Of a DNA stretch of 64,000 nt, positions 25,300 to 60,810 are shown piece after piece. Under the pieces are notes generated by a model that did no database searches, was not told the DNA's origin, and saw only the letters and a list, made by a program, of their open reading frames with translations. Each line of letters opens with the position of its first letter. Within the stretch, counting starts at the first letter, position 1. Source of the DNA: Nemertoderma westbladi (lineage: Eukaryota > Animalia > Xenacoelomorpha); NCBI GenBank assembly GCA_032718475.1, contig JAUCBJ010002964.1, forward strand, positions 5,551-69,550, given 5' to 3'. The position numbers and the translations under genes are program-made.

Positions 25300-25861
25300 T
25301 GTGACGGGATCCACGAAGGATCCCGATTTTTCCGGTTTATCAATCTACGTGTCCCCGCCGTGTGTGAAAGGTGAAAAGAGTTTGTGTTGTTCGTCGTATA
25401 TAATCCTTGGGTATAATAGTATAGATGAATGATGATAATATAGAATTGGTAATATAGTAAACGGAAGGCGGGAAACGGTGATTAAAGTCCCGGTACTTCC
25501 CTAGCTAAACTAACCTAACTAACACCAAATGATACACTGACTAAATGATACACTGACTAAATGATAGCTGTACTGATAATATATTGCACGGTTGGCCAAG
25601 TTACGCTACTCAGCCGGTGCCTTCCCCCCATTGGCTAATAACCCTGTTGTCGCCCCTTTTCCTCCCCAGTAGTGCTTCCCTTCGCCCCTGCTATTCTCTC
25701 TCTTTCAGGGGTGTAACCCCTGACCCCTATTGTGTGTGTGTTTCTCCTTCCCACTTTGTAGGGGTGACACGAGGTTGATATTGGTAATCAACCTCGTGTT
25801 CCCAATATTGCTTAACGGCTCACTCTATGGGGTTAGGTTAGCGGAATTGGATAAGCTAACA
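25300..25861 (-). repeat. 5' LTR of element 1, with CCAAT (25630-25634), TATA-like (25576-25585) and Inr-like TCAGT (~25552-25556)
   Basis: TG...CA termini, TSD, identity to the 3' LTR; promoter motifs identified by consensus only. Confidence 0.95.
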
Positions 25862-33785: not shown

Positions 33786-34784
33786 CTCATGTACTGATGT
33801 AGACACGGAAAAGAGTACAGCTGTACAGGGGTATCTTTCCGATTGCGCGAAGGTAAATCATCCTCTAACAACTGGTAGGCCTTGCTGCCTTGGCCTACCG
33901 ATACTTGGTCGAACGTGTCTGACTCAAACGAAGGAGCCTACCTGCTGGCTGGCTGGACGGGCGTAGCACATCTCTGCCATCTGCGCAGCCCTTCCACCTT
34001 CTAGCACTTTCAGACTTTGCTGCTTTGCCTGCCCTTGCACATTTCTGCGCCGGCTCCCGCTGTGTGTTGCGCGCGCAGTTGCAAGGTCAATAGTATCTAC
34101 ATCATTGTCCAGAATAGGGTGTTTCCCTTCACTTCTATGGGGCTTTCTATTATTCCTACCTGTCCCAAATACGTTGTGTAATGATTTCCAACCTGTCCAA
34201 TATAGGGGCATCCAATCAAATCATCATATGAGCGAACTCCTCTTCATCGGACCAATACCAACATTCCTAAAGTTAGGCATCTCCCTTATTGGCTATATAA
34301 TGTAAAGGTTAACGGAAAATTCCACTGATATATAATCCAAGTGTCAACTACGAATCCAGGGCTCATTATAACAACCTATACTGGACAGAGCAACGTATTT
34401 GGGACAAGAGCTGGTTGAGGTATATGTACAGTGGAAATTCCCATTCTAAATAAGGGCATTTGGAATGCTTGTTCCCTAGTTATGGTTAAAGATATACTGT
34501 GGGTGCCTTGCAAATGGCCTGTACGACTGATGCATTATAGGCTATAGTGTCATCATAGTCACGTTATTTAATTTCATGTTGTACAATTTATTCATATTGT
34601 GCAATTTATTCATGTTGTGCAATTTATTCTTTGTGCAATTTATTCATGTGGTGCAATTTATTCACTTATAATAAATCTAAATACATTCGTATATTAATAA
34701 TTAAATGACAATCAAATTAGTGATATCGCAACCTCCTCCCCTGGACACAACTTCATCCCAAATAGTCCTTAATAAGTCTTAAAT

Positions 34785-37700
34785 TTGACTCAAATAGGTT
34801 GTTAGTGTCCCATATAGGGTGTTTGTGTCCCATATAGGTTGATTTTGTCCAAAATAGCCTGTAGCTTTATCAAAATTATTTCAAATAGTTTGTAAATGTA
34901 AAGGAATACTGAAAAGAATATCGACTTCATAATCACAGCTTTAATTCCAATTTGTCCCAAATAGGTTGTTTATGTCCCATATAGGGTGTTTGTGTCCCAC
35001 ACAGGGTGTTTTTGTACCAAATAGCATGTAACTTTCTCAAAATGATTTTACATAGTTTATAAATATGATGGAAATACTCAAAAGAAAATAGAATCCACTA
35101 TCATAGCTTTAATTTAAATTTGTCCCAAATAGGTTGTTTGTGTCCCATATAGGGTGTTTGTGTCCAGTATATGGTGTGAAGTGCTTATAATGATTTCAAA
35201 TAGTTTCGAAATGTAATGGAATACTCAAAAGAATATAGCATTCACTATCATAGCTTTAATTTAAATTTGTCCCAAATAGGTTGTTTGTGTCCCATATAGG
35301 GTGTTTGTGTCCAGTATATGGTGTGAAGTGCTTATAATGATTTCAAATAGTTTCGAAATGTAATGGAATACTCAAAAGAATATAGCATTCACTATCATAG
35401 CTTTAATTTAAATTTGTCCCAAATAGGTTGTTTGTGTCCCAAATAGCGTGTGACTTTCTCAAAATGATTTTAAATAGTTTCTAAATCTCATGGAATACTC
35501 AAAAGAATATAAAATTCACTACTATAGCTTTAATTTCAATTTGTCCCAAATAGGTTGTTTTTGACCCATATAGGGTGTTTATGTCCCGTATAGGGTGTGA
35601 ATTGCTTATAATGATTTCAAATAGTTTCTAAATGTAATGGAATCCTCAAAAGAATATAGAATCCACTATCATAGCTTTAATTTAAATTTGTCCCAAATAG
35701 GTTGTTTATGTCCCATATAGGGTGTTTGTGTCCCATATAGGGTGTTTGTGTCCCAAATTGCGTGTGACTTTCTCAAAATGATTTTACATAGTTTATAAAT
35801 ATAATGGAATAGTCAAAAGCAAATATAATTCACTATCATAGCTTTAATTCAAATTTGTCCCAAATAGGTTGTTTTTGTCCCATATAGGGTGTTTGTTTCC
35901 CGTATAGGGTGTGAATTGCTTATAATAATTTCAAGTAGTTTCTAAATGTAATGGAATCCTCAAAAGAATATATAATTCACTACCATAGCTTTAATTTCAA
36001 TTTGTCCCAAATAGGTTGTTTTTGTCCCATATAGGGTGTTTGTGTCCCGTATAGGGTGTGTATTTCTTATAATGATTTCAAATAGTTTCTAAATGCAGGG
36101 GAATACTCAAAAGAATATAGAATTCACTACCATAGCTGTAATTTCAATTTGTCCCAAATAGGTTTTTTTGGCCCATATAGGGTGTTTATGTCCCGTATAC
36201 TGTAGGGTGTTTGTATCCCAAATAGCGTGTGACTTTCTCAAAATGATTTTAAATAGTTTCTAAATCTCATGGAATACTCAAAAGAATATAGAATTCACTA
36301 CTATAGCTTTAATTTCAATTTGTCCCACATAGGGAGTTTGTGTCCCGTATAGGGTGTGAATTGCTTATAATGATTTCAAATATATTTTCTAAATGTAATG
36401 GAATATTCAAAAGAATATAGAATCCACTATCATAGCTTTAATTTAAATTTGTCCCAAATAGGTTGTTTATGTCCCATATAGGGTGTTTGTGTCCCATATA
36501 GGGTGTTTGTGTCCCAATTTGCGTGTGACTTTCTCAAAATGATTTTACATAGTTTATAAATATAATGGAATAGTCAAAAGCAAATAGAATTCACTATCAT
36601 AGCTTTAATTTAAATTTGTCCCAAATAGGTTGTTTTTGTCCCATATAGAGTGCTTGCGTCCCGTATAGGGTGTGAATTGCTTATAATAATTTCAAATAGT
36701 TTCTAAATGTAATGGAATAATAAAAATAATATAGAATTCACTATCATAGCTTTAATTTCAATTTGTCCCCAATAGGTTGTTTTTTGTTGTCCCATATAGG
36801 GTGTTTGTGTCCCGTATAGGGTGTGAATTGCTTATAATGATTTCAAATATTTTCTAAATGTAATGGAATACTCAAAAGAATATAGAATTCACTATCATAG
36901 CTTTAATTTAAATTTGTCCCAAATAGGTTGTTTATGTCCCATATGGGGTGTTTGTGTCCCATATAGGGTGTTTGTGTCCCAAATTGCGTGTGACTTTCTC
37001 AAAATGATTTTACATAGTTTATAAATATAATGGAATACTCAAAATAAAATATAATTCACTATTATAGCTTTAATTTAAATTTGTCCCAAATAGGTTGTTT
37101 TTGTCCCATATAGGGTGTTTGTGTGCCAAATAGCGTGTGACTTTCTCAAAATGATTTTACATAGTTTCCAAATATAATGGAATACTTAAAAGAAAATATA
37201 ATTCACTATCATTTTTTCTTTAATTTAAATTTGTCCCAAATAGGTTGTTTATGTCCCATATAGGGTGTTTGTGTCCCATATAGGGTGTTTGTGTCCCAAT
37301 TTGCGTGCGACTTTCTCAAAATGATTTTACATAGTTTATAAATATAATGGAATAGTCAAAAGCAAATATAATTCACTATCATAGCTTTAATTTAAATTTG
37401 TCCCAAATAGGTTGTTTTTGTCCCATATAGGGTGTTTGTGTCCCATATAAGGGTGTGTATTGCTTATAATGATTTCAAATAGTTTCTAAATGTAGGGGAA
37501 TACTCAAAAGAATATAGAATTCACTACCATAGCTTTAATTGCAATTTGTCCCAAATAGGTTGTTTTTGGCCCATATAGGGTGTTTATGTCCCGTATAGGG
37601 TGTTTGTGTCCCAAATAGCGTGTAACTTTCTCAAAATGATTTTAAATAGTTTCATTACATTTCGAAACTATTTGAAATCATTTTAAGCACTTCACACCCT

Positions 37701-38835
37701 ATACGGGACACAAACACCCTATATGGGATACAAACAACCTATTTGGGACAAATTTAAATTAAAGCTATGATAGTGGATTCTATTTTCTTTTGAGTATTTC
37801 CATTATATTTATAAACTATGTAAAATCATTTTGAGAAAGTCATACGCTTTTTGGGACACAAACACCCTATATGGGACACAAACACCCTATATGGGACATA
37901 TACAACCTATTTGGGACACATTTAAATTAAAGCTATGATAGTGGGTTCTATTTTCTTTTGAGTATTTCCATTATATTTATAAACTATGTAAAATCATTTT
38001 GAGAAAGTCATACGCTATTTGGCACACAAACACCCTATATGGGACAAAAACAACCTATTTGGGACAAATTTAAATTAAAGCTATGATAGTGAATTATATT
38101 TTCTTTTGAGTATTCAATTATATTTATAAACTATGTAAAATCATTTTGAGAAAGTCACACGCTATTTGGGACACAAACACCCTATATGGGACACAAACAA
38201 CCTATTTGGGACAAATTTAAATTAAAGCTATGATAGTGGATTCTATTTTCTTTTGAGTATTTCCATTATATTTATAAACTATGTAAAATCATTTTGAGAA
38301 AGTCATACGCTATTTGGCACACAAACACCCTATATGGGACAAAAACAACCTATTTGGGACAAATTTAAATTAAAGCTATGATAGTGAATTATATTTTCTT
38401 TTGAGTATTCCATTATATTTATAAACTATGTAAAATCATTTTGAGAAAGTCACACGCTATTTGGGACACAAACACCCTATATGGGACACAAACACCCTAT
38501 ATGGGACATAAACAACCTATTTGGGACAATTTTAAATTAAAGCTATGATAGTGAATTCTATATTCTTTAGAGTATTCCATTACATTTAGAAAATATTTGA
38601 AATCATTATACGCAATTCACACCCTATACGGGACACAAACACCCTATTTGGGACAAAAACAACCTATTTGGGAAAAATTGAAATTAAAGCTATGGTATTA
38701 AATTATATATTCTTTTGAGTATTCCATGAGATTTAGTAACTATTTAAAATCATTTTGAGATAGTGACACGCTTCACACACTATATGGGACACAAACACCC
38801 TATATGGGACACAAACAACCTATTTGAGTCAAATT
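34785..38835. repeat. Satellite of ~120-145-bp units with internal ~19-bp subrepeats (GTCCCATATAGGGTGTTTGT); forward to 37653, reversed after
   Basis: Recurrent TCACTATCATAGCTTTAATTTAAATTTGTCCCAAATAGGTTGTTT; two alternating unit variants. Confidence 0.95.
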
Positions 38836-39117
38836 TAAGACTTATTAAGGACTATTTGGGATGAAGTTATGTCTGGGGGAGGAGGTTGCGATATCACTAA
38901 TTTGATTGTCATTTAATTATTATTATACGAATGTATTTGGATTTATTATATATGAATAAATTGCACCACATGAATAAATTGCACAATGAATAAATTGCAC
39001 AATGAATAAATTGCACAACATGAATAAATTGCACAATATGAAAAAAATGCACAACATGACATGAAATAATGTGACTATGGTGACATTATAGCCTATAATG
39101 CATCACAGTCTTACAGG

Positions 39118-39662
39118 TGTTAGCTTATCCAATTCCGCTAACCAACCCATAAAGTAAGGTTTAAGCAATATTGGGGAACACGAGGGTAATCAATCAACCT
39201 CGTGTCACCCCAACAAAGTGGGAAGGAGAAACCCCAAAGAACATATGCACAATAGGGGTCAGGGGTTACACCCCTGAGAGAGAGAGAATAGCAGGGGCGA
39301 AGGGAAGCACTTCAGGGGAAGTAAAAGGGCGACAACAGGGTTATTAGCCAATGGGGGGAAGGCACCGGCTGAGTAATGTAACTCGGCCAACCGTATATCA
39401 TCAGTGATATATTATCAGTACAGCAATCATTTAGTCAGTGCATAGTTAGGTTAGTTTAGCTAGGGTAGTACCGGAACTTTAATTACCGTCACCCGTCTTC
39501 CGTTTATTACCAATATTATATCCTATATTCTGTGTCATATTATTTCATCTTATACTATTATACCCGGAGAACTATATACAACGATCAATAAACTCTTTCA
39601 CCTTTCACACACGGCGGGGACGCGTAGATTGAAAACCGGGATCCTCCGTGGATCCCGTCACA
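39118..39662 (+). mobile_element. Solo LTR of Bel/Pao family 1, inserted in the right arm of the foldback element
   Basis: TGTTAGC...GTCACA; TSD ACAGG (39113-39117, 39663-39667). Confidence 0.95.
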
Positions 39663-42020: not shown

Positions 42021-42230
42021 AATTGTGTTTGGTTAAATTTCTTAAATACCGAGTTTATGATACAGTAGAGTCGCTCAATATTAATCTTTATCTCATAACC
42101 AAGCCTTTGGACACGTTCATAGATTGTGGCCACCCTGGATCTAGAATATTAGCTGCTGCCTTAATCCCAGGTGGGATTCTGAGTTTTATTAATAGGCAAC
42201 ACAAATAAGTCTTTTAATCTTTTTCTCAAC

Positions 42231-43533
42231 TACTACTAGGATCGGCATGCTGCATTGCAGCTGCATTTTTAAGAATGCTGTGCCGGCTTGTCAACAAAAT
42301 TGCACCGTCACAACTCCCTATCACCCATGACATTTGCTAGATCATCCGCATCTTTAAGGTCAGTGTCCTTTAAGATGCGTCTCAAGAAAGTTATGGGCTG
42401 TCCACCATGCTTATTCACTCCATGAGGCTGCCAAAGTACAAGATTATGCACTGGCTGGTCCTCACGGCGAAAGCAATGTCCTGCAAAGCGGAGGCAAATT
42501 TGTTCTAGTGTCAAGCTTGGGGGAACCAATGAGACACCTCCAATGTTATAGAGTGTCTGGTTGGAGATGTGTGCATTGTACTTGACACAATGAACCCGGC
42601 GTAGCATTCTTGTGAATGTGCCATCCAGAGATTTGGTGTCCTCAGCAGTTAGAGCCCAGCATGGACTCCCGTAGAGGAGTACTGGAACTACTGCTGCTCT
42701 AAATAATCGGACCTTAAGTTTCCGATTAATTCTAGGTGACTTCCAAATCCTGGAAAGCCTATTCAAGGCTGCCCATGCCTTTCCCTTACGTATTCGAAGG
42801 TCCTCACCTGACTTCCGGATCCATGATCCAAGGTAACAGAAGTCGTCCACATGCTCAAGCATACCATCCTTTGAGCTTATGCTCATCCGATCAGAGACTT
42901 GCTGAGGACTTTCAAAGTTAACTGTCAGAATTTTGGTCTTTCTGGAGTTAATAAAAAGACCAACACTAGAAGCAGCATGTTCTAATGAGCTAAGGAGCCG
43001 TTGGGCTCCCTCTAATGATTCTGAGAGTACTCCTAAGTCATCAGCAAAGTCTAGATCAGTTAGGTACTTGGCAAGATTTCCTCGACTTCTGGAGCCAGTA
43101 GGTGGAGTTATCATCACCCCATCATCATTATGATGATCTAAGGACATGCGTAGAACATAGTCAACCACAATAATGAACAAAAATGGTGCAAGTGTGTCTC
43201 CTTGGAGGACGCCCCATAACACTTCAAATGGTTCTGTGTCACCGTCAACAGTAGACACAAATGTTGTCGAACCATCGTATACTGATCTGATTGCTGCAAT
43301 AATTTCATCAGGAATCCCATATAATGAAAGTATGCTGAACATACGTGACCGAGAGACTGAATCAAAGGCCTTGAAGAAGTCAACAAAGATAACAGCCAGA
43401 TGCCTGTCTTTCTTTTTTGATAATTCTTTTTTAATTTAATAATTTTTATCCTTCTAAGTGCCAAAATGGGCTCCATGGTCCCACGACCTTTACGGAACCC
43501 ATTCCGATTTCCACGGAGCAGTCTCTCAATGGG
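42231..43533 (-). mobile_element. RTE copy 3, 3' part (split by element 2; 5' part at 60811-61044)
   Basis: ORF 42308-43342 is near-identical to the RT C-terminal half; same flanks and same indel as copy 2. Confidence 0.93.
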
Positions 43534-44676
43534 TGTAAAGGCTTTTGCGGAATTGGCCGGTTATTTCCCCCGTAAAGTACTCTGTAGTTGGTTTAACAGG
43601 CATAAAAGGCCGTGTCCTTACTGTACTGGTGTTTTAGAGGACATAAAAGCCATTTCTTCTGTATGTGTACTTTAGCGGACATAATTAGCAATTCTATGAC
43701 GCAATACGCCAGATCCTCTTGAAACAGTGTAGCTACCATGACGACGGCTAACAGCTGATGCTGTACACGTGGAGCTTTTTCTTTGTTCTCTGTTCCTTCT
43801 TTGTTCGGTCGACCAATCAGAGCGTTTTTTGCCTCTGTGTTGGAGATTGTATATAGAAACTCATGGAGTTGAGTCAGTATGTGATTTTGTCCACAGCCTA
43901 GAACACCGGCTTTGGAACCTCCGTGTTTCAGTCTTTAGCCCAACATTAGTAGGCTTAATTATAGAACGTATATCTGTTATCAAATCGATCATATCAATTT
44001 ATATCTTAACATTTTACTGCTATTTACTGTCGGTTATTCATTATATTTGTTGATGGAATATTATATTTGGAATACTGATAAATAATCAGACACCCCAATC
44101 TTCTTGATATACTAAAGGTTAGAGAGACCGGTTACATATAACGATTGCGACTTACATTAAGTGGTTTGAAGTGAATCTAATGCTATTTCATAAGCCCTAC
44201 ATGTATTGTCTGTTGTTCTCTTTATATGTGACTAAATTTAGTGAAGGTCGGCAGATTAGTGTGCAGCATTGTGCAGTATTGTGTATGATTGTGACTGATA
44301 ACAAAGCATCTCCTAAAGAATGCGCCATATACGTGAATCTATAGCCATCCCGTTGTGTCTAGTTTAAGTCATAACTCTGTTTACATATTTAGAGCGCCAC
44401 GTCCTAAAGGAACTGTTAATATTTCCCGAAAGTGAATAATATTTGTCAGAGATTATATATTACGATCAGTCGAATAATACAGTAGGCCTACCCCGCAATA
44501 CGGTTAGGCTTCCGAATCCAGTCTCCCGGGTATATCCAGCGGGTGAATGATCGCGCATAGACTGGCTTCGGCTAATGTAGTGTATCAAATACTTGTCATA
44601 GGCTAAAGACGATCTATTATCTAAAAGACATCCCAATTTGGCAGGTTAAACTGCTAAAGGTCTGAAAGCGCGAACA
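43534..44676 (+). repeat. 5' LTR of element 2, with CCAAT (43813-43817), TATA-like (43850-43858) and Inr-like TCAGT (43874-43878)
   Basis: Identity to 59663-60805; TG...CA ends; promoter motifs identified by consensus only. Confidence 0.96.
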
Positions 44677-44735
44677 ATAACAGATATTGCTTCTGTATTG
44701 CAGTAGGCAATAACGCTGAAGTACCGGACAACCGG
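44677..44735 (+). other. Non-canonical primer-binding region of element 2, complementary to its own LTR
   Basis: ATAACAGATAT (44677-44687) is the exact reverse complement of ATATCTGTTAT (43970-43980); further helices extend to ~43906/44735; no TGG. Confidence 0.78.
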
Positions 44736-44955
44736 TACCTAGTAGGCCTGACTACTTAACCACCCGGACCGGTACCTCTACAGCAGTACAGGTACAGCAG
44801 TATTATTTGATTGTGAAATTGTATACCGGTAGGCTGTTTAAGAGATTAGGGACTGTACACCCCTTGTTTCTTTTGGAGCTTACTTATTTCTGTCAGTTTT
44901 ATTTATTTGTAGGCCAATATTGAGCAGAAGACGTGTAAGCCTGCCCAGATTATAC

Positions 44956-45527
44956 AGATAATTTGTAGGCTGGACTGTTGTCTGACTGTTGTTAGGTCTG
45001 AAGGGACTGTAGTGTGTGTAGAGCGTATATCCGAAAAAGTACTAGTTAGGAAAGTAGGGGCTGCCAGTGCTGTGAGGTGAACCCCCTCGAAAGAATAAGT
45101 CGTACTACTCGGTTAGAACGCATACTAACTAACCATTTCGGAGTCTGCATATACTGTAGTTTATTTAGGCTTGATAGTAGTCTGCCAGCGTTTGGTCTGT
45201 ATTTTGTTTGTGTAGTTTGTACGGGTAGCGTAATATTTCTTACTTAGATAATTTGTAGGCTGCATTTTGTCTGGCTGTTGTTAGGTCTGAAGAGATTTCG
45301 GTGTGTGTAGAGTGTATGTCCGATAAAGTGCCAGTTGGGAACGTAGGGGCTTCCAGAGCTGTGAGGTAAACCCCCTCGAAAGAATAAGTCGTACTACTCG
45401 GTTAGAACGCATACTAACTAACCATTTCGGAGTCTGCATATACCGTAGTTTGTTTAGGCTTGATAGTAGTCTGTCAGTATTTGGTCTGCATTTTGTTTGA
45501 GTAGTCTGTACGCGTAGCGTAATATTT
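44956..45527 (+). repeat. Two tandem ~285-bp repeats in the 2.2-kb leader of element 2
   Basis: 44956-45238 versus 45246-45527; central ~70 bp identical; another duplication at ~46481-46712. Confidence 0.88.
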
Positions 45528-46883
45528 ATTATTCAGAGTTTATGCGATTATTCGCAACATTCATATCCCCAAGTTTATTTCTACAGTAATTGTGCTTGTT
45601 ATATATACCGTTATAGTTAAACTAACCCCGGTACTACATCAGGGCTGCTTGGCGTAGGTAAAGACTGGTGATTTTGTGCCCCGGTCACTCCAGCAGATAC
45701 CGTGGTTCTTTTAGCTGTTCAAGTATTTTTAACTACTGATTATTTGTTGTATAAGTACTTGTACCTAATTTAGGGTTTAGTGTACAGTACTTTCCGAAGG
45801 TGATTAGTGTGTAGGCAGTATATTTGTGTTGTAAAGTGGTTAATAGGCACGTTGGTTCTGGTAGACCGCGGTAATTAACTTCTAGGTAGGAACACTCCGT
45901 GATACATAACGTAGTACTTATAGCAATACGGCTATAAGTCGTCAGATGGTGGTATTTTTCTATCTGGACAACGCAGTATATTTACTACTACTTATTATTT
46001 TCAAATACCGTAGTACCCTGTCTGTTTGTAATCACCAGATATTCTAACCCTTTGTTAGGCTGGTTTGTAGACTTCTTGTAAAATTACCCTAAAAATTCGT
46101 ACTTGTAATTTTTGTGTTTATTTAGAGATTGTAATCTCACCCCGAATTGTATGTAATTTGTAGTATTAAGTAACTTAGTTAAATTATAATTATTTGTTTT
46201 AGTGTCCAACAAGTAGCACTTCACTGAGAGCACAGCTTCTGTGTAGTGACTCCCCCAGAAATAATAACATTTATTTCAAATATTGACAAAACCCATTTTA
46301 ACGGGTATATATATTATAAATCAACTCAAACCGATTTATAAAATAGTAGGCCTGCCATACAACAATTAGGTCTAAATATCAGTTGGACTACTGCTTAAAT
46401 AACGGTAATCGAGTAAAGCAAAGTAACCAAGCAAGTAACCCCTAAAATTTCAGAAATTCAATTATTCTAAAAATAATTGATATACCGGTATTCACGATAG
46501 GCCTATTATATATTTATAGTTTTAGGCTGAAATTATACCGGTATTCTGTAATTAATTCTAGTCCATAATTATACTTATATATACTATAAGTGTAAGCTGT
46601 ATACCGGTATTCACGATAGGCCTATTATATATTTATATATACTGGTGCTGGAAAAACATACCGGTATTCTGTGACAAACCTAGTCTGTAATAATACTTAT
46701 ATATACTATAAGCATACCGGTATTCTAATATATTATATATATATATCAAGTTACATTAGTGACGATATCAAGTTACATTAGTGACGATATCGGTAATTAA
46801 TTACTAGGCTATCAGTTGATACTGAATTACTAGACTTGCTTTAACTGTAATATAGCAGTAGGCATTCAACTGTACAAACAAAC

Positions 46884-49800
46884 ATGTCTGACAAAAGCCG
46901 AACCTGTCAGATAGTCTCCTAGATACAACCATCTGTGACCCAGACAGGAGTGTGGAACGTGAGAGACCGAAGTTCAATTCACCTCCTACTGTAAGAAAGA
47001 TCATCCCTCCAGTAGTAATATCAGACCCTAGGCTAGTCCAACATCGTAGGTCTATCATAGGCACTCGAGCTCAGGTCAAGCGGGACCAAGAAGCAGCAGA
47101 ACAGCAACTACCCGCGAGCCGAGAACTTATTTCCCAGCGGCCCGGCAGCTCCAGTAGTGAGGATACTGTGGAGCTGACACCCGAGCGCGGAGCAAAGATG
47201 ACAGATGCGGTTTATTCGGATCCCCTTCTCATCCTTCCTGCAGCCGTACTCACTAGGGTATTGATTGCGGTGGAAGAACACCAGATTGATTGGGCGAGAA
47301 GTAAGCGGTCGACTAAAGATAGTTATGCGGGATACACAAGGGAAGAACTGAAGTCTATTGTCGAGTCGCAATGGAACTTCCCTGGACCCGGACTACCTTT
47401 CGACTTATCAGAAGCTGCCTGGGAAGACATACACAGGATGGGAGTAATAAAAGAAACCATCGATCCAGCTGTGTGGAAGAGGTCAGCAGCAGGATACGTA
47501 CAGGGATTCTTCAGCTCTATGGAGCGATTAAAAGAACAACTGTTTCAACAACCCCAAGGATCTCAAGAGCAGGGACAGCTGCTTTATCAAGTTAGAGAAA
47601 GAATTCTACGAATCAGGCTAATCTTATCGGCCTTTGAGGAGGCTTCTAAAAGAAGACAAGACACGTCGTTGCAAGTTGCCGTAAAGACTTGGTTTCAACG
47701 GGTGAGTCTCCAGGTTCAAGGAACGGCTCAGTGGAAAGCTCAGCTGGAGGAGCGCTCAACCCATGGAGAATCAACAGACGCTACTTTTTCCCAAGTGGAA
47801 AGTGAAGCGACGGCAGAGAAACCGCATAAGAGGGATGCCATTGACATCTATCTGTCAGACTATCAACGCTTTGTAGGAGACGAAGAGTTGAGGAGACGGC
47901 TGGATGGACTTAGCCCTAATAGTGAAGGAGCCAAGCTTGTGTTGGACGCAATCGATGTGGATAGGTTAGCTGCGAACCAAGCTAAATTCAATGAAAGCAT
48001 CCGCATCACTAAGGTTCAAGAAGAACAAGTAAAGAAAAAACGTATAGAAGACAGAAAGACAGCGGCAGTGGCAGCAGCAGTGGCAGCGGCAGAAGCGGAA
48101 AGAAAAGCGGCAGCGGCAACGGCAGAGGCAGAAGCGGAAAGAAAAGCGGCAGTGGCAGTGGCCGAAGCGGAAAGAAAAGCGGCATTGGCAGCGGCAGAGG
48201 CAGTGGCAGAGGCAGAACGGAGAGCGTCTGAAGAGACAACCCAACTAGAGTTGGAAAATCTTCAAGAGAGGCAAGACAACTTCAATAAACAGTTAACAGC
48301 TAGTAATATGCAGATGATGAGTCGATCTACTCCCAAAAGACAGGGATATACATCATCTGAGGAAGGCGATACCACCGATACTGAAAGCGGAGGAAATAGA
48401 TCTCGTCTAAGCAGACGTAGAAGAATATCCCACCGCCAGAAACTGCCTGATTTGCCCCCAGCTGTTAGAAAGCAACTAAATAACACAAACTTAGGTAGTA
48501 CAGAACCCACAGACCAAATAATTGAAATAGAAAGACTCCCTACTATAGTAGATGAGCCTGAAATAATTAGGCCTGTTCCCGAAGCCACCCCTTCGGTGAT
48601 AGAGACACCTGTACTCCCTGAACCTACCTCTAAATTCCCTCTGCACAGCACTAAGTTATCTGTGCCACACAGAACCACCCTTGAAAATGCTCATGTCCTG
48701 GACTCCGAGCGAAATATTAATGATTTATCGCCCGTTGTCCCTCGTCAGCCCGTTACAACGTTGGCGGCTCCCGCTTCGGTGGTCGAGTGGGTGGATGAGA
48801 GACGACGGGGGATGGATCTCCTGCTCGGGCAGATGCAGGAGACTGTTCAGCAATTCAAGGGCACAGTAAGGGAAAGTAGGTTAGAGTTGCAAGAAGTGCA
48901 GCAAAGCATCGCGTTAGAACGCGATAAATTAGTAAATACACAAAGAGGTATACCACCACCCCCTGTAACAATGTGTCAACCTGTTAGGTCTGAAGTATCT
49001 CATGCGCAAGGTGTGGAGCCTACACGCATATATACTGCTAGCGAAGTAGAAACTCCTATAGTAAACCCTATAAAGGGTAATTATAGACCTGTTGATAATG
49101 ATATTCCCTATAGACCTGATCATAATCCGAGAAATTTATATACCGATAACTCGATATTAAATAACACGATGGCCCAAGAAAGTTTTACGCGTCAAATGGC
49201 TAGAACCGAAGCCCGTCAAGCGGTAAAGGTGGGAGAGATAGTCAAGTTCAATGGAGATGAGATGAAATGGTTACCTTTTAATGAATATTATAAAGATAAC
49301 ATACAGAACTCTGTACTATCTAATGGAGAGAAACTTACATTCCTCATCGAGTGCTTGGAAGGATCTCCCAAGTTAATGGCGTTAAAGTTTATTGGACATC
49401 CAGATGGATTAAGACAAGTTTGGGATACACTAAACATCAGGTATGGTAATAGGAATAACATAGCTAAATATTTATACGCAAAATTAGTAGCGCCCCGAAA
49501 GTTCATTAGCAGCGGGATAATAGAGTTTTCCGATGAGATTCAAGAGATCTGTAGACAATTAGATTGGTTAGGTAAGTCTCATGAATATCAGAGTTCTATG
49601 GTCATTGGAGCCGTGGCTTCTACTTTACCGAAGGGTGGAGTAGGTACACGCTGGGATAAGAAAGTGTTATATATGATGGAACAACAACGACGAGACCCTA
49701 CCATGGCTGATCTCATGTCATTCTTAGATGGAGAAGTGAAATTACAGCTCCTAAAACAGTCCAGAGAGAAGACACCGGAAAACAAGGTAAGTGAGAAACC

Positions 49801-51780
49801 CGTTTCTAGGAGAAAGGTAACACCAGTGTGTTATACAGACGACGGCGAAAGCCAGACTTCTCAAGGAGAGGATAGCGGGAAAGACACTGAAAGATCTTAT
49901 TATGTCAATAAAATGCCTAAAGAACAGGTAAGTAAATTCAAGTCTCGAACCAATGACAGGAGAGAACAGGTAAGAAAAACTCCTCCTACGTCTCCTAAGA
50001 GAATTCAGGTGAGAAAGCCTGAAGAAAGAACGAGTGTGCACAATGTTATTCAAAATAAGGTAAGTAACATCAAACCGAAATGTGCGCTATATGACGGGAC
50101 CCACCGTTTGAATATGTGTGATGAATTCCTGAAGAAATCATTAACGGAGAGACGGGAAGTCATGTGGGATAAGCGGTTGTGTTATAATTGCCTCAGACAA
50201 GGACACCATCGGCGAACCTGTTACTCCGACATAAGGTGTGCAAAGTGTGGTGCGAAACATCATATCTTGTTGCACACTGAATTTGAGCGAAACAGCCAGA
50301 GTCAGGTAAGTGATTCCGAACTACATGTCCAATTCAGTGATGTGAACGACACTGACCAAAGTTCTGAGATGGAAGGATTCTATACAGATGAATTCTCCGA
50401 CGAAAATGAATCCTGTTACATGATAAATACCGCAGTGTATCGAGCACTTACGTATGAAAAAGACACGGACAGCGACCTCACCCTAACTACTTCTGATCGA
50501 CAACCATCTTGGAAAGCGCCACCTTCCAATGTAGGAATCCGAGAATTTCCTGTAGTACAGGTAAGGGTCCATGGACCTAAAAGGAGTTATGTAGTGAACG
50601 CCCTCCTTGACTCCGGTAGTACAGGAACATTCATCGACAAAGAACTAGCCAAAGACATCTTTGCTGGACAACCCAAGTTCCGAACTAAGCTAAACATGTC
50701 AGGAATTATGCAGGTTTGGAAATCTACAGTAATAGCGGATTATTATGTAGGTGCGTTGTCCACCCCCCAGGATGAACTAGGAGAACATAGTATAAGGTCA
50801 GTAAAAATGGTGGCGATAAAGAACTTCGCTACCACCCAAGTGGAACCTTATAACTGGGATGAGGACGATTTCACCCAGCAGCTGGAAATACCTAGATTCA
50901 ACACCGATTACCCTGGAGTGCAAATACTCATCGGTCAAAACGCGCATGAAGCGCTCGAGACATTGGAGAAACGGCCTGCTCAACCGCAACCACTACAAGC
51001 TTATGCGGGAAGAACTAGAGTGGGTTGGTACTTTACTGGCCCTTCCCGTAGAACTCTCATGGAAAGATTACCGAAAGACCAGGTATATCAGGTAAGAGAA
51101 TGGGAAGTCGAGAGCAGTGAGTTAGACGATCCAACTGAGGGAACACCATACTCCTCAGATAATGACGATGTCCACCAACTTTTCGATGAGGAGAATACCA
51201 TTGATCTCCTTAAGGAAAATGAGACTTGGCAAAACCAAGTGAACTTATGTCAGCTCCTTCTTCCATCAGAACGAGACGACTATAACGACGAACTTAATGA
51301 CGTCATTGAACGTTATAATGCCAAGACTCGGGATGAACACGCCGTACGATTCTTTACTCAAGAGGCTGTAGAGCCCAATTCCTACGATAAGGCCCTATCG
51401 GTAGAGGAAGAAAGAGCCAAGCAGATCCAAGAGACAACTACACGTTTTCTTAAAGATCAAGGTAGATATGAGATCGGTCTACCTTTCCGAAAGCGAGAAC
51501 CAAAGTTCGTAAACAACAAACCCTTGGCGGAGAAAAGAATTGCTCAACTACATCAACGCCTTACGGCAAATTCTTCAGCTAAAGAAATGTATCAAACGCA
51601 GTTGAAGAAATTTATTAGCAAGGGATATGCGGAGCTAGTACCGGAAGAAACACCTATAACTGAGAGAACGTATTATTTAACTCACCATTACGTTCCCAAA
51701 CCCGGTAAACCCCATGAAGTACGAGTGGTGTTTGACGGCTCCGCCCTCTATATGGGCCAATCCCTTAATTCCGAATTGTT
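46884..51780 (+). CDS. gag: Gag-protease part of the element 2 polyprotein (track ORF 46952..51898)
   Basis: KFNGDEMKW, L..RYG, CALYDGTHRLNMC / CYNCLRQGHHRRTC / CAKCGAKHHILLH (Bel/Pao triple knuckle), ALLDSGS (PR), YYLTHH, RVVFDGS. The ATG at 46884 joins the frame if one A is added to the A-run at 46893-46896. Confidence 0.9.
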
Positions 51781-54700
51781 TGCCCGGACCCAACTTACTC
51801 CAATCCTTGTTGGGAATACTCTTAAGATTAAGACAATATTCAATTGCTTTCGCCTCAGATATAGAAGGCATGTTCTTACAAGTCAAGGCGCTGGATAGGG
51901 ATCGAGATAGCCTACGATTTCTGTGGTGGCCTGAAGGAGACCTCAACCAGAAACTGGTGGAGTACTGGATGACCATCCAGGCTTTTGGGATAATCTCAAG
52001 CCCTTCAAACGCCTGTTCCGTGGTGCGCACCACTGCGGATGACAACCGAGACGCCTTCTCTAAAGAGGTGATTGACAACATCAAGCGGGATATATACATG
52101 GACGACAATCTAAAGTCCCTTCCATCAGTCGAAGAAGCCATCGATGTCGCTAAAGGAATGGTAGAGTGCTTAAAAAGAGGTGGATTTCGATTAACTAAAT
52201 TCACCAGCAACTCCCGTGAGTTTCTGGAGTCGATCCCAGTAGAAGATCGAGGAGCGAAAGACCTGGATCTAATAAAAGATGATCTCCCAGAAACTAAGAC
52301 CCTTGGTTTGAAATGGGACACAGAAAGAGATATCCTGTTTTTCCAACTAAAACAGCGAGATAATCCAGTTCGGACTAAACGGATTTGTTTAAGTATCCTG
52401 AGCACTTATTTCGATCCATTGGGATTTATTAGCCCAGTTATATTGATTGCTCGGAGTTTAGTACAACAAATGTGGCTTGAAAACCACTCATGCGACGATC
52501 CACTTAAGGGAGAATTATTAAAGAAGTGGATGAAATGGGAAGATTCTCTACCAGCCATCGAGAACTTTATAATTTCCCGTTCATATTTTGGTCATGTTCT
52601 CCCTACGTATTCCTATCAACTCCATGTGTTTGGAGATGCCAGCGATATGGGAATAGGTATAGTAGCCTACCTAAGGGTGGAAACTCCGGACGGAATCACA
52701 GTCGCCTTGGTTACCTCTAAGGCATTGATAAACAATAAGTTGAAAGTTCCTCGAGCGGAGTTAAAAGCGGCTCTATACGCTACAGCCATCGGCCGGAATG
52801 TAACAGAACAGATCGACTATCCACTGGAGAAAACTGTCTATTGGACCGATGCTTTACTCGTGTTGGAGTATATAACCAATGAAGTCTGTCAGTTCAGCGT
52901 CTTCGTTACCAACAGAGTAGCCATTATACTCAGTCGCACAACGATGGATCAATGGAGACATTGCCCCGGAACGACTAATCCAGCAGACATCGCCTCCAGG
53001 GGAGCAACTCCCCAAGAACTGGTAGACACTCCAGACTGGTTAGGTGGACCCGACTTCCTCTACAAAGAAGAAGAAGAATGGCCTCCTCATCTTACTACCA
53101 CAGAGATTAGACAGGCCAAGGGAGCGGAGAAAGTCAAACCTAAAACTCGGGCGAGTAAATCGAAGTTATTTAAACCTATGGTAGATCTGTCTGTACTACA
53201 TACTTCCGGAGATGACGCTTTGGATCAGAAACCCACAGCCACAAATAAGTCTGTAGTGGAAATCCGTGAGAAGGATTGGAAATCTGGAATACCAGACGTC
53301 TCGCAAGGACTCTCACCTCTCCTGCAGAGAGCGATACATCACTACAGTTCCTGGAATCGGCTCTGTAAGGCCGTCACATATTTAAAACGATGTTTTCATC
53401 ATCACTACTCCGGGACGAAGACCAATAGTGATACCGCTCCACTAACATCGGTGCAGGTCCATGTTGTTAAAGATCTTCCCAAATATAAGATATCCGACAG
53501 GTTTCTGAAGGAGAAGATCAGTTATCAGGAGCATGAAGAAAACAACAAGCAGATGCTGAGACTCCTGCAATGCTATGAGGATTCCGATAAGTATTTCCTG
53601 TTGTTGAGAAATCCACAGATGCGCTTAAGGGATCGTTTCTCTAGCACAATGATAGATGGGTTGATACGTGTTGGAGGAAGATTAACGAATGCTCCATTAT
53701 CCTTTGACACTAAGTTTCCCATACTCATTAGAAATCTTGAAATACAAGTCAAGATGATTGTAGATGTTCACAGCAAACTTTATCATGCTGGTAGAGAACG
53801 AGTTCTTAGCGAAATTCGAACTCGCTATAATTTTTATAAACCCCGTAGAGCTCTGAACCAAGTTCTTAGGAACTGCATACCCTGTAGGAAAGCATTCAGT
53901 AGGCCTTTAACACAGCGAGAGGCAGAATTACCTAGGGAACGAGTAAGCTTCTATGAACCACCCTTTACTAATACCGGTGTGGATTTATTTGGCCCTATTG
54001 AAGTATATCGTGCTAGGACTATAGTCAAGAGATGGTGTGTCATCTTTGTTTGTATGACTTGTAGAGCTATCCATCTCGACATGGTGAACGATTTATCTAC
54101 CAACAGCTTTCTATTAAGCTTACGACGACAGATCGCTCGCTTTGGCACTAGTAACACGATGAGATCTGATAAGGGAACAAACTTCATTGGTGCCAACAAT
54201 GAAATCAAAGCTTACGTCAAAGATTGGAACCAAAGACAGGTGGACGATCAGCTACGAGTAACAGCGTCTAGCTGGACCTTCAACGCCGCCGACGCCCCTT
54301 GGTGGGGAGGAAGTTGGGAGAGATTAATAAGAAGTGTGAAGACCGCATTTCACTTTATAGTGCCTTGCCGCGCGTATCTCACCGACGAACTTTTGCGGAC
54401 GTTAATGGAGGAAATTGCCGCCTATCTCAATGAGAGACCGCTTATGCCAGTCTCATCGAGTCCTGATTCCCTGGAAGCGCTAACACCCGCGCACTTCCTA
54501 CTGAAGAAACCTGTAGCCATGCTCCCACAATCGGAAATCACAGATGGAGACGAATACTGCCGGCAAACTTGGCAACTCATGCAGTTGTTATCCCGTCGTT
54601 TCGCTGACCATTTCGAAAAACATTATCTGCCCACGCTACAACTTCGAACTAAGTGGTTTGCACAGCAAGAAAACGTCAGCGCTGGAGACATGGTTCTTAT

Positions 54701-54980
54701 TGTGGATGTAGATCTTCCACGTAAGCGGTGGCAGACAGGTCGTATCATCGAGACTCACATCTCGGATGACGGTTTGGTGCGATCGGTAGAACTCGTCGTC
54801 ATGCGACGTAACTTCAAGAAACCGGGAATTGTCTTCGAGACACAGCAGCTCAATCGCCCAGTTGGTCGCTTATGTTTACTGGAAAGAGACAGAGAACTCT
54901 CCGGAAACTATGGAAGGCAGGATACTCTTCCCACGACCACCTCCCTAATCCAACAAACATCTAGGGACTCCCCAACTTAA
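51781..54980 (+). CDS. pol: RT-RNase H-integrase part of the element 2 polyprotein (track ORF 51714..54980)
   Basis: GPNLL, DIEGMFLQV, YMDD, FDPLGF, FGDAS, PRAEL, WTD, NPADIASRG, H-H-CC, DLFGP, SDKGTNF, WGGSWER, LNERPL; removing one T at 51779-51781 fuses it to gag. Confidence 0.95.
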
Positions 54981-55540
54981 CAACGGCTGGAGTGGGTGTA
55001 TGACTATATTTTATATTTTATATTTGTTTTTATTCTTTTATATTTATGTATGTATTATTATGTAATTTTATTATAATCGTTTTCTTTAATTTTATTTAGT
55101 AGAATGTTATTTTAGCGATTATTTAGTAGATTAGTGCAATATATATTAGCGTTTATTACTTAATTACTTATATATTATATATTTAGTGCGACGGCGAGAA
55201 ATAATTATTTTTCTCCTTCCTTACTGTCCGTATTACATTACAAATACGTAACTACAGTAAGATGAAATGTCTGTACTTATTAAAGTACAATAAAGCTCCT
55301 ACTATATTTAAGTATTATTGGTAAGCAGAGTATTAGGAATGCAAAATTCAGATCCTCGTGTCTCGGCTAAACCAAGCTCTGGGTAGACCTTGGAAACGAC
55401 TTGCCTCTTCTCACTGACATTGCTTCGTGCGATATTGCTCTCATACCGTATATTAAATAATACATATAGTAGCGTGATGTCCCTTTAACAGTAGCGTATA
55501 AGGCAAAATAAATCTGTTAAACCCTTTGACCATCTGTAAC

Positions 55541-55800
55541 TCTAGTCGATTAAGATATCGTGGCACCCACCGATATACTTGAAAGACAAATTCTAGAATC
55601 AGTGGTTAACATCCCCAGACAAGTTCTGGAATAAATGGTGCCCATCCTAAATATTAATTATTAATATTTACAAAATCTGTCAAATTTTAGATCCTTTAAA
55701 ATTCTAGTCGATTAAGATATCGTAGCACTTACCGATACTCTTAAAAAGACAAAATTCCTAGAATCAAGGATCCCAGTCCCCAGACACGTTCTGGAATAAA
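55541..55800 (+). repeat. Two ~95-bp structured repeats between pol and the accessory ORF
   Basis: 55541-55635 and 55702-55800; each has nested inverted repeats, a CCAGA/TCTGG hairpin and a terminal AATAAA. Confidence 0.75.
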
Positions 55801-56620: not shown

Positions 56621-57808
56621 ATGACTGAGTTGATAGAAGATGTTCTTAGTATCAGGGAGCGATATACTCTACCTTTACAAGCGTTTGTCGATAGCTTGAA
56701 ACGCGGCGACGCTGGTCCAACTCCTACGGAGGATGATGGTCGTTATATCGAACCGCCAATGTCCTAGGAGCAACTTACGCGTGAATTGGATTATAGAAAG
56801 TTCACCGCTCGCTATACGCATCGTAATGGTACGTATATGGACTTCTTAACTACTGGCCATCCTATCGATTTACACGATACGGACGACGTAGACACCGAAA
56901 GGGAAATGGTTTTATTTAAATATCATACCCAGCGGAGTCGGCACGATAAACCGAGAATAGAACACGAGAATTCTATTCGAAATCAGCTCGAAAGATAGAA
57001 CGTGGAAGAAGGCTTGTAGAGACAAATAGAGGAGAACCACTGGAGAAGAGACATGGGTTAATGTCCAGGGTCCATAATGTGAATAGTTTTCCCCAGGGCA
57101 CGGGTGCTCGCGGGCGGTCTCCTTCGGGAGGCTGTAAATTTCTCTTCCTTCATCGTTTTCCTGTAATTATTGTGATCAGTGTCACAATTAAAAGGCAAGA
57201 ATGAATGATGACATGACGGAAAACTTGTCCATTGTGGTATCTTATGGATACTACCATATATCCTCCCTCCCCTTTACTTCCCTTATCCCTCTATACATCG
57301 CTATTGAAAATACAACATTCTTCGTCCCACCTTCTCTTCCCAACGCGCTCGGAGCTTTGGGAAACGATCGACCAATCATTGCCGTATCGTGGTATTGATT
57401 ATACCACCTCTTAATAAACCTCCCATCCCTTACTATTAATCTGGATGCTCATATTGGTGTCCGCACCTCCTGTCCATGTCACACTCTGTTGATATTTATG
57501 ATATCAACTTCCACCCTCTCGTTGTTGATTAGAAAATCAACCACCAATGATTTCCTTAAGTCCACAACCGTGATACAAGGACTGAAAGGACATGCGGATA
57601 GTTTGTGAACAACTGGTACCATTATGTGTCATAAATCTGGTTGTTCACCCCCTAATCACTGGGGATAAATTCATTTGGAGATAGTCATCGAATGATGCAA
57701 TCCTCCTACTGAGATCGTATTTCGGAATATTTCTAAATACGACATAGGTCTTCCCCTGCTCTCTACCACTACCATCAATGGAAGACATATTAGGCATACG
57801 ACGGGAAT
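56621..57808 (+). pseudogene. Probable decayed 5' part of the element 2 accessory ORF
   Basis: ATG at 56621 after TATATAAA (56581-56588); coding-like composition; 56621 and 56786..56998 are in the same frame as 57809, with many scattered stops. Confidence 0.45.
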
Positions 57809-59584
57809 ATGGAGAACATTCCATACCCTTTCGTGGATACTCAGCTGATTGCTCCCTGGGCAGAAGGCCGAGGTTTCTTCCGCACTATGTATGCAAATAC
57901 ACCCAGCGGCATTACTAAAGTACAACGAACCTCCATCGGACATCTTGCCTTTCAAGAATACGGATGGAATTTCAAGGTTGGAAATCCTATAAATTACCAA
58001 CAAGTATATGGAGATCATTATTCTCGTTTATACTTTGATGGACCATTGACCGCACCTGGCGCCGTGTATAGCTTTATGAGTGTTCCACTTCGTCCCTCCT
58101 TAGCTATATACACGATCTTTGAAAACGCAGCACTTGCCGGTTGGCTAACCGATGTGTGCAGTCGTACCATACGCGCCCATCCCTTAATACTTGGAACCAA
58201 ACTCGCCAAGTTAGATGAACACAATAAATTCATCCGCTTCGAATGTTTCAGGCGCTTTCTGACTCCGTTCCGTAACGTTGATAGTCAGTTCAAGGACTGC
58301 GCTCTGACCAAGCTCAGCCTAAGAGACTCAGCTGCGGAGAAGCTAAACAGCGCGGGATTTGCTCTCTTTCAGGACGTTTGTATACAGAACTTACATTCAT
58401 CTGTTATACAAAGACCCCGAATACCCACAGGTTATTCTGTCGTGGAAGTTCAGACAGTGGGTCCGCTTGCGGAGACAGCCGCACCTACCTCAGCTATGCA
58501 ATTGGAAGACGAACCAATATGCTTAGAATCTGAAGCGATCCAGCCTAGAGCGCCCCGGAGCAGCGATAACGATTACGTCTTGGAGTGGTATCAAGGTCCA
58601 CAATGTCTCACCGCATACGATTATCGACACGCCAACTATGTTTCTCGAAAACGTTGTCGATTATGCGCATCGAGAGACCATTTCACCCCTATGGACTCAG
58701 ACGTACCCTGCTCCTATTTCCACGAACAGCCAATGATAGAGATCTATTGTGCGTATTGCAGACTTAATAACTCGCATATTTTTGCAGTCTGCCCCCAATT
58801 TATGACCCAATGCCACCACTGTCAACTTAAAGGACATGCCAGTTATAATTGCCCCTTTAACCGCGATTTAGAAAGCGTAGATGAGATGATTACCCTGCGC
58901 TACATCCGAGCTTGGGAAGCGAACGCGGATTTACATTGTGAGTCCCGCCATCGTTACTATCCTGGACGCTCTTACGAGGGAGTTTACGCGTTCCATCCCT
59001 ATCTATTCGCGTCTGTGGAACAAAAAACACGCACACCGAGTTACGAACTAATGAAGCATGTTGGTGAGTGTATTTCCACCAAATTTGTTCGAAAATATCT
59101 TAGGAACGTCAATCCTAACGATATTACTTTATACCATTTGATCAATTACATCCGTCAAGACCCTGAGTATGGAGATTTATTTATCAACTCGCACCCTGAG
59201 TTACAGGAAGTATCTCGACGGCCCTACGAATATCGAGCCCGAGAACGCGAGCTGGAAAGAACCATTAAACCAAGGAAGTTTCTCACCACTCATGGTCCGC
59301 CTACCGCCATTGTCCAGACGACCCGTCAAGGACCCGTAGGAGCTGCTGTCCTAAGACGCACCCTAAAGGCCGTTAGACCTCTCTCCACTGAAGTTGATAT
59401 CGATCAACCAGGTACCTCGACCGGCGGATACACCGATCGTAATCCTAAACCTTCTGATGCAATTGTATTGCACCCTTCACCCAGGAGTTACAGCCCTCCT
59501 AGTAAAGTGGCTCGCCCCAAAGAGAAAAGGACTCTTGCTAGCCTCAAAAAACTGCGTAAACGCTGTCCGCGTAAGAAAGACTAA
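57809..59584 (+). CDS. Accessory ORF of element 2 (591 aa): C-terminal half of a DEDDy-like exonuclease fold, three zinc knuckles, basic tail
   Basis: FVDTQL, SIGHLAFQEYGWNFK, VYSFMSVPLRPSLAIYTIFE; CRLCASRDH, CAYCRLNNSHIFAVC, CHHCQLKGHASYNC, WEANAD; colinear with 13119-15616; ends KKLRKRCPRKKD (NLS-like). Confidence 0.8.
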   Translation: MENIPYPFVDTQLIAPWAEGRGFFRTMYANTPSGITKVQRTSIGHLAFQEYGWNFKVGNPINYQQVYGDHYSRLYFDGPLTAPGAVYSFMSVPLRPSLAIYTIFENAALAGWLTDVCSRTIRAHPLILGTKLAKLDEHNKFIRFECFRRFLTPFRNVDSQFKDCALTKLSLRDSAAEKLNSAGFALFQDVCIQNLHSSVIQRPRIPTGYSVVEVQTVGPLAETAAPTSAMQLEDEPICLESEAIQPRAPRSSDNDYVLEWYQGPQCLTAYDYRHANYVSRKRCRLCASRDHFTPMDSDVPCSYFHEQPMIEIYCAYCRLNNSHIFAVCPQFMTQCHHCQLKGHASYNCPFNRDLESVDEMITLRYIRAWEANADLHCESRHRYYPGRSYEGVYAFHPYLFASVEQKTRTPSYELMKHVGECISTKFVRKYLRNVNPNDITLYHLINYIRQDPEYGDLFINSHPELQEVSRRPYEYRARERELERTIKPRKFLTTHGPPTAIVQTTRQGPVGAAVLRRTLKAVRPLSTEVDIDQPGTSTGGYTDRNPKPSDAIVLHPSPRSYSPPSKVARPKEKRTLASLKKLRKRCPRKKD

Positions 59585-59654
59585 CTGTTTAGAGTATTTT
59601 TATATTTTAGAAACTGTGATTTGTTATATTTTATAGACTTAAATCCCATTTTCT

Positions 59655-59662
59655 GGGAGCGG
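59655..59662 (+). other. Polypurine tract of element 2 (GGGAGCGG)
   Basis: G-rich run abutting the 3' LTR TG; overlaps a TCCCA/TGGGA hairpin. Confidence 0.7.
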
Positions 59663-60805
59663 TGTAAAGGCTTTTGCGGAATTGGCCGGTTATTTCCCCC
59701 GTAAAGTACTCTTTAGTTGGTTTAACAGGCATAAAAGGCCGTGTCCTTACTGTACTGGTGTTTTAGAGGACATAAAAGCCATTTCTTCTGTATGTGTACT
59801 TTAGCGGACATAATTAGCAATTCTATGACGCAATACGCCAGATCCTCTTGAAACAGTGTAGCTACCATGACGACGGCTAACAGCTGATGCTGTACACGTG
59901 GAGCTTTTTCTTTGTTCTCTGTTCCTTCTTTGTTCGTTCGACCAATCAGAGCGTTTTTTGCCTCTGTGTTGGAGATTGTATATAGAAACTCGTGGAGTTG
60001 AGTCAGTATGTGATTTTGTCCACAGCCTAGAACACCGGCTTTGGAACCTCCGTGTTTCAGTCTTTAGCCCAACATTAGTAGGCTTAATTATAGAACATAT
60101 ATCTGTTATCAAATCGATCATATCAATTTATATCTTAACATTTTACTGCTATTTACTGTCGGTTATTCATTATATTTGTTGATGGAATATTATATTTGGA
60201 ATACTGATAAATAATCAGACACCCCAATCTTCTTGATATACTAAAGGTTAGAGAGACCGGTTACATATAACGATTGCGACTTACATTAAGTGGTTTGAAG
60301 TGAATCTAATGCTATTTCATAAGCCCTACATGTATTGTCTGTTGTTCTCTTTATATGTGACTAAATTTAGTGAAGGTCGGCAGATTAGTGTGCAGCATTG
60401 TGCAGTATTGTGTATGATTGTGACTGATAACAAAGCATCTCCTAAAGAATGCGCCATATACGTGAATCTATAGCCATCCCGTTGTGTCTAGTTTAAGTCA
60501 TATCTCTGTTTACATATTTAGAGCGCCACGTCCTAAAGGAACTGTTAATATTTCCCGAAAGTGAATAATATTTGTCAGAGATTATATATTACGATCAGTC
60601 GAATAATACAGTAGGCCTACCCCGCAATACGGTTAGGCTTCCGAATCCAGTCTCCCGGGTATATCCAGCGGGTGAATGATCGCTCATAGACTGGTTTCGG
60701 CTAATGTAGTGTATCAAATACTTGTCATAGGCTAAAGACGATCTATTATCTAAAAGACATCCCAATTTGGCAGGTTAAACTGCTAAAGGTCTGAAAGCGC
60801 GAACA
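59663..60805 (+). repeat. 3' LTR of element 2
   Basis: Near-identical to 43534-44676; followed by TSD ATGGG. Confidence 0.97.
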
Positions 60806-60810
60806 ATGGG

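Follow-up and report, generated by a model that had tools for sequence, protein, structure and literature searches.

A Bel/Pao retrotransposon of Nemertoderma westbladi that probably primes reverse transcription from its own RNA

How does an LTR retrotransposon begin reverse transcription when no tRNA site follows its 5' LTR? The question is raised by a Bel/Pao element, here called element 2, in the 64-kb stretch of Nemertoderma westbladi DNA analysed in full (the window). In the ICTV profile of Belpaoviridae (PMC8742986), genomes measure 4-10 kb and an 18-nt primer-binding site (PBS) pairs with the 3' end of tRNA-Arg or tRNA-Gly, the tRNA site being a descriptive trait of a family defined by phylogeny. 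As originally noted, no TGG adjoins the 5' LTR of element 2; the first one occurs only at 44874, 197 nt away, and what follows the LTR is an 11-mer (44677-44687) that is the exact reverse complement of 43970-43980 within the same LTR. Judging from sequence, we consider it likely that element 2 primes itself in cis, from the segment of its own RNA ending at 43980 and without a tRNA.

Element 2 occupies 17.3 kb (43534-60805, + strand), as delimited by self-BLAST and inspection of the window (Table 1). Its Gag and Pol match PF03564, PF05380, PF17921 and PF18701 with the order PR-RT-RH-IN, and the combination of a DUF1759 Gag with PF05380, PF17921 and PF18701 identifies it as Bel/Pao. The gag-pol frame has a single break, early in RT. 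Since the two LTRs are 99.4% identical, with 7 differences (among them 43968, G in the 5' LTR and A in the 3' LTR), the insertion is young. Its best homologues share 31-43% identity and the same domain families; those with names, at 31-42% identity, belong to fish, echinoderms, cnidarians and crustaceans, and no named reference element of the Sinbad/Sailor, Suzu, Dan or Flow lineages appears among the loci or homologues recovered. Element 2 resembles Belpaoviridae (genus Semotivirus) in its TG..CA LTRs, 5-bp duplication, DUF1759 Gag, PF05380, PF18701 and PR-RT-RH-IN order, but differs from the ICTV description in its 17.3-kb length and in having no PBS of the tRNA type. For the extra frame before the 3' LTR, no Pfam family was found, and ESM Atlas gave weak CCHC-like leads only (0.83 or less). 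The leader of about 2.5 kb (44677-47200) holds a 289-nt tandem duplication at 44956-45537, and 54981-57793 is a 2.8-kb stretch with no long frame.

Element 2 sits inside a copy of a non-LTR (RVT_1, DUF6451) retrotransposon, near-identical copies of which lie at 1742-3897, 29311-30626, 42104-43533 and 60806-61044. A 147-nt satellite with 20-nt subrepeats fills 34759-38840 and 62736-64000, its array inverting near 37500 to give long inverted arms, and a perfect 258-nt palindrome stands in A/T-rich surroundings at 27731-27988. The window also contains an uninterrupted 939-codon patched-domain (PTCHD3-like) frame at 4956-7775 (-), a host gene whose nearest matches, hemichordate and mollusc proteins, share no more than 41% identity with it.

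Table 1. Features of element 2 and priming features of element 1, in window coordinates
Feature	Coordinates	Strand	Remarks
Target-site duplication ATGGG, left copy	43529..43533	+	right copy 60806-60810
5' LTR	43534..44676	+	1143 nt, TG..CA; direct repeat with 59663-60805
Predicted promoter	43813..43878	+	CCAAT 43813, TATATAGAA 43850, initiator-like TCAGT 43874, predicted +1 43876
Predicted self-primer end ATATCTGTTAT	43970..43980	+	predicted cut between 43980 and 43981 fits the clade pattern A-Y/C (slash, cut)
Loop (rest of R and U5), 696 nt	43981..44676	+	predicted template of minus strong-stop DNA
Predicted PBS ATAACAGATAT	44677..44687	+	flush with LTR end, no TGG
Local hairpin	44681..44718	+	-12.1 kcal/mol; competes with PBS duplex
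Possible short duplex extension	44688..44697	+	with 43960-43969, two bulges; z -1.9, not significant alone
Gag (DUF1759, Cys-His boxes) and DSG protease motif, stop-to-stop frame	46892..51898	+	protease motif by eye
RT (YMDD), RNase H (FGDAS) and integrase, stop-to-stop frame	51681..54980	+	PF05380, PF17921, PF18701
Extra 596-aa frame, three Cys-His clusters	57794..59584	+	before 3' LTR
Polypurine-tract-like GGGAGCGG	59655..59662	+	directly before 3' LTR
3' LTR	59663..60805	+	1143 nt; second copy of primer 11-mer at 60099-60109
Element 1, predicted PBS GTGATTAAA	25291..25299	-	flush with 5' LTR (25300-25861), no TGG
Element 1, predicted self-primer end TTTAATCAC	25478..25486	-	also in 3' LTR and two solo LTRs

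The local evidence for the pairing is concentrated in its 11-bp core. When the element 2 LTR was shuffled with its dinucleotide composition kept, a flush match of at least 11 nt arose in 24 of 20,000 trials (p about 0.001), and pairing halts at the LTR boundary, as had been stated, with a C:A mismatch between 43981 and 44676. The flush position itself holds for element 2 and not as a rule, its relatives having spacers of 0-5 nt. The CCAAT, TATATAGAA and TCAGT motifs all stand where they had been placed, the start site itself being a prediction. The wobble helices by which pairing was thought to continue outward can indeed be drawn but are no better than those of shuffled sequence: 279 of 1000 shuffles did as well for 43900-43959 with 44698-44760, 98 of 1000 for 43955-43969 with 44688-44702, and 190 of 1000 for the two outer helices jointly. 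When 43876-44760 is folded, the 11-bp duplex is disfavoured: forcing it costs 14.5 kcal/mol, and its pairing probability in naked-RNA folding is about 0. A TATA-like box lies 131 nt before the predicted cut and none lies near 40 nt, and the 696-nt loop holds neither AATAAA nor ATTAAA. That the primer 11-mer recurs in the 3' LTR weighs against priming in cis, since nothing in the proposed scheme would direct an intron-less element to its 5' copy. No tRNA gene was found in the window, and 43400-47300 gave no match to Rfam. A primer built by splicing proved unnecessary for either element 2 or element 1, and the element 2 LTR has no GT[AG]AG donor.

A second arrangement of the same kind is found on the opposite strand. 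Element 1 is a 14-kb Bel/Pao element (11867-25861, -) with LTRs of 562 nt at 25300-25861 and 11867-12430, a TCTTC duplication and several frame breaks, and its pol is 29% identical to that of element 2. Its flush 9-mer was equalled in 147 of 20,000 shuffles (p about 0.007), and an alignment of its LTR copies shows one G-U-compatible change in the primer segment. Extra frames at 13119-14480 and 14810-15658 have no Pfam matches. Solo LTRs of the family at 7873-8413 and 39118-39662, each with a 5-bp duplication, are 80-83% identical, yet near-invariant over the 50 nt ending at the predicted primer.

Conservation of the pairing among relatives was examined on LTR ends fixed by the direct repeat alone. 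An alignment of 42 Pol proteins, used as query, retrieved 78 + 37 loci (115), from which 26 with LTR-like direct repeats were inspected; L042 and L106 (near-copies) and L052 and L083 (truncated repeats) were dropped, and the remaining 22 loci formed the strict test set together with both window elements. A spacer of 0-4 nt was permitted, and the partner could be contiguous or be reached across a GT[AG]AG..AG junction. Under this rule, 11 of the 14 elements without a TGG pair over 10-15 bp with their own LTR (8 spliced, 3 contiguous), against 1 of 180 cross-matched PBS/LTR pairs within the group that reaches 10 (that one 11) and 2 of 530 overall, so that the pairing predicted from element 2 is conserved in its relatives. 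In 8 of these 11, the partner is present only across the GT..AG intron junction. As to the other three, element 1 has 9 bp, and L057 and L112 miss; both have ragged LTR ends, and resetting these by eye gives 11 and 12 bp. The TGG-type elements, 5 of which are near-copies of one family, reach 10 bp in 0 of 10 cases, with a maximum of 5. Between the sister families L082 and L097, two matched changes are seen, on both strands, and the LTR intron is kept in both LTRs of L059, L082, L085, L097 and L114.

The same features extend to a wider set of 29 elements, 15 of which had the LTR end set at an ACA beside the match and are not independent. Twenty-two of the 29 are spliced and 7 contiguous; duplexes measure 9-15 bp, with 11 bp in 19. 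Self-pairing in place of a tRNA site, as claimed for element 2, marks one Bel/Pao branch, with 27 distinct PBS 11-mers among the 29 elements and each matching its own LTR. The primer end has A at -2 in 27/29 and a pyrimidine at -1 in 29/29, with C after the cut in 20/29. From cut to LTR end the relatives span 44-222 nt, as against 696 nt in element 2, the longest seen. An AATAAA or ATTAAA falls 0-93 nt past the cut in 21/29, as strand transfer needs, and the poly(A) signal of L085 is the LTR end itself. TATA-like boxes were matched in 12/29 elements, 60-261 nt before the cut; none of these 12 pattern-matched elements has one at about 40 nt, as a Tf1-type primer needs.

The split primers show a splice-site context also in matches sought with no splice motif assumed: AG precedes 19 of 22 short plain matches (background about 0.055), including 7 of 8 among the fixed-end spliced elements. 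Furthermore, acceptors carry 7.8 pyrimidines per 11 nt vs 5.8, and position +6 of the donor is T in 18/22, which the search did not demand. Introns are 71-1022 nt long, and the second exon gives 4-8 nt of the primer. L009 has one LTR copy with an acceptor and another that is intron-less, joined where L017 has its donor; these copies lie at 1-326 and 6694-7103 on one contig and may be two subfamilies merged by assembly. With a looser rule, 5 of 6 further loci were seen to pair over 10-12 bp, while 0 of 30 cross pairs reached 10; the sixth, L062, has 9 + 7 bp.

Naked-RNA folding gives a duplex probability of 0.8 or more in 13/29 elements, with loops of 49-219 nt, and of 0.1 or less in 11/29, including 6/7 intron-less ones, these counts being read with no null computed. 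A short extension beside the core duplex is the only trend seen (mean z -0.94, 6/29 below -2). Flanking helices like those of the Tf1 "pretzel" fell below z -2 in 1/29 elements in each of three tests with self-chosen windows, element 2 itself scoring z -0.2, 0.1 and 1.9. Beyond the Pol search, 29 pattern matches in viral contigs included no relative, and a polypurine-tract pattern in genome contigs led to 18 loci, which gave one with a Bel/Pao pol, a repeat of L083, and one whose LTR was truncated. Among L079-L115, many prokaryotic genome bins carry whole animal Bel/Pao elements, most likely as host DNA contamination.

A quick maximum-likelihood tree of RT-RNase H (92 rows; 25 of the 115 loci, whose matches were short, are excluded, and L059 and L085 are in the strict test and absent from the tree) separates the two kinds of PBS. 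A single label change divides 34 self-pairing from 18 TGG-type rows (0/500 shuffles), with rows outside the self-pairing clade bearing TGG-type sites; 40 rows, mostly with incomplete LTRs, are unlabelled, and rows were scored as TGG-type by pattern and visual inspection. Both window elements come out as the most basal members of a branch of 68 rows (SH-aLRT 95), a placement that is tentative given the midpoint root, the long branch of element 1 and the quick search. Spliced and contiguous states change 6 times among 29 rows, which suggests repeated intron loss.

The lineage has lost the TGG site, has PBSs complementary throughout to the element's own LTR, shows a splice context in the relatives and has a conserved A-Y/C end to the predicted primer. 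The course of events that we propose for element 2 would begin with transcription near 43876, after which 43970-43980 would anneal to the PBS; since naked RNA prefers the local hairpin, the Gag nucleocapsid probably assists this step. A cut between 43980 and 43981, for which the element's own RNase H is the likely agent as in Tf1, would then yield a capped primer of about 105 nt. Reverse transcriptase would copy 696 nt back to the cut and jump to the 3' LTR, and the upstream LTR would be rebuilt from the 3' copy, in relatives with the intron recopied along. These data fit the original model, in which an internal primer some 100 nt past the cap is cut after 43980 and closes a 696-nt loop. Most relatives would obtain their primer only once a cap-proximal LTR intron is spliced out, and this requirement would confine the primer to the 5' copy; element 2 and element 1 carry it ready-made, with no intron. 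Cap-proximal introns are spliced better than one that ends a multi-kb exon, which would explain an unspliced 3' copy in the relatives.

Self-priming is known for Tf1/sushi, Tcn1 and copia TAR elements, as described in PMC7175516, PMC6317226, PMC4600332, PMC10085805 and PMC5341516. Tf1 itself uses an 11-nt primer cut by RNase H (PMC7175516). Tf1/Tf2, Tj1 and the Tf1/sushi group, with plant Tcn1, are alike in having no tRNA PBS and an 11-nt 5' LTR RNA that pairs beside the LTR, and in requiring the duplexed RNA to be cut to free a 3'-OH (PMC7175516, PMC4600332, PMC10085805). Element 2 shares the Tf1/sushi trait of an LTR complement of about 11 bp at the PBS. However, Tf1/sushi elements are Ty3/gypsy chromoviruses, and element 2 has Bel/Pao domains and no chromodomain match; Tf1 takes the first 11 nt of its transcript as primer, whereas the element 2 segment lies about 95-105 nt past the predicted start; Tf1 needs a three-helix pretzel, of which none was found in element 2; and, unlike Tf1, most relatives of element 2 have an intron-split primer, with element 2 itself having a 696-nt loop. 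By analogy, element 2 would work like Tf1 self-priming, presumably by a comparable cut, without membership of Tf1/sushi. The TAR copia elements (Houba, Osr-1) are predicted to self-prime where LTR complementarity of at least 10 bp lies 0-5 bp past the 5' LTR (PMC6317226), a description that applies to element 2; TAR elements are plant Ty1/copia, and the available text of the same paper describes no spliced primer for them.

No Bel/Pao self-primer is mentioned in the accessible text of PMC3601003, PMC5006619, PMC6934838, PMC554778, PMC3118150, PMC6238403, PMC8233318 or PMC5408684. The main text of PMC554778 (Sinbad), PMC3118150 (Bel/Pao survey) and PMC6238403 (mollusc survey) does not contain the word tRNA, nor does that of the first two mention a PBS. 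Among the titles and abstracts surveyed we found none on Bel/Pao self-priming.

Other origins of the primer have to be weighed against priming in cis. The element might encode its primer and receive it in trans, from the other of two packaged genomes or from a short transcript of the LTR, spliced in most relatives, with trimming or cutting at the same base; we regard this as unlikely. Such a supply would dispense with closing the 696-nt loop that naked folding disfavours, would account simply for the LTR intron surviving in both LTRs of relatives, and sits well with the retention of the segment in solo LTRs of element 1. Yet folding favours pairing in cis (0.8 or more) in 13/29 elements, whose loops measure 49-219 nt; a poly(A) signal shortly beyond the cut suits priming in cis followed by strand transfer; and Tf1 uses its own transcript as primer.

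It is rather improbable that the duplex is structural or regulatory, serving packaging, translation or the hiding of the PBS until maturation, while a host RNA, for instance half of a tRNA, acts as the true primer. A fixed host RNA would not permit 27 different PBS 11-mers in 29 elements, each tracking its own LTR; moreover, 0-5 nt separate the end of the duplex from that of the LTR, which is where a primer has to stop, and Rfam returned nothing across 43400-47300, even though half-tRNA primers lacking TGG are known for copia lineages (PMC6317226). Still more doubtful is priming from the 3' LTR copy at 60099-60109, by which the RNA would circularise, be cut after that copy and use its own 3' end. 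The identical 11-mer in the 3' LTR and the absence of a canonical poly(A) signal downstream in element 2 speak for it, whereas intron-bearing relatives would need a spliced 3' copy and their new LTRs would lose the intron, which both LTRs of L059, L082, L085, L097 and L114 retain. Chance complementarity of an A/T-rich LTR beside a decayed PBS is scarcely credible, for although the outer helices are at chance level and 1 of 180 cross-matched pairs does reach 11, p is about 0.001 for element 2 and 0.007 for element 1, LTRs 99.4% identical mark a young insertion, and 11/14 fixed-end elements against 1/180 refute chance at the level of the clade.

Priming in cis from an internal segment is the reading that we carry to the branch as a whole, where we lean, with some reserve, towards the following view. 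A large Bel/Pao branch of aquatic animals may have swapped the tRNA for an internal self-primer cut from its capped leader; joining of two LTR exons by the host spliceosome would, in most members, license reverse transcription and confine it to the 5' LTR. The window elements would represent the deepest-branching, intron-less form, which may be ancestral and prime across loops as long as 700 nt. The idea can be checked in existing RNA data of the clade's hosts, through reads across the junction and RNA ends at the predicted base, and for annotation of PBS-less Bel/Pao elements it supplies a rule, namely to seek about 11 bp ending in A-Y/C, contiguous or across an LTR junction. The ICTV profile treats Bel/Pao as tRNA-primed and does not describe self-priming. 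If true, our reading would make Bel/Pao a third LTR superfamily in which self-priming has arisen, by a design unlike that of Tf1 (an internal primer and no pretzel); it would free these elements from host tRNAs; and, with the primer of most members existing only after splicing, it would tie their reverse transcription to host splicing.
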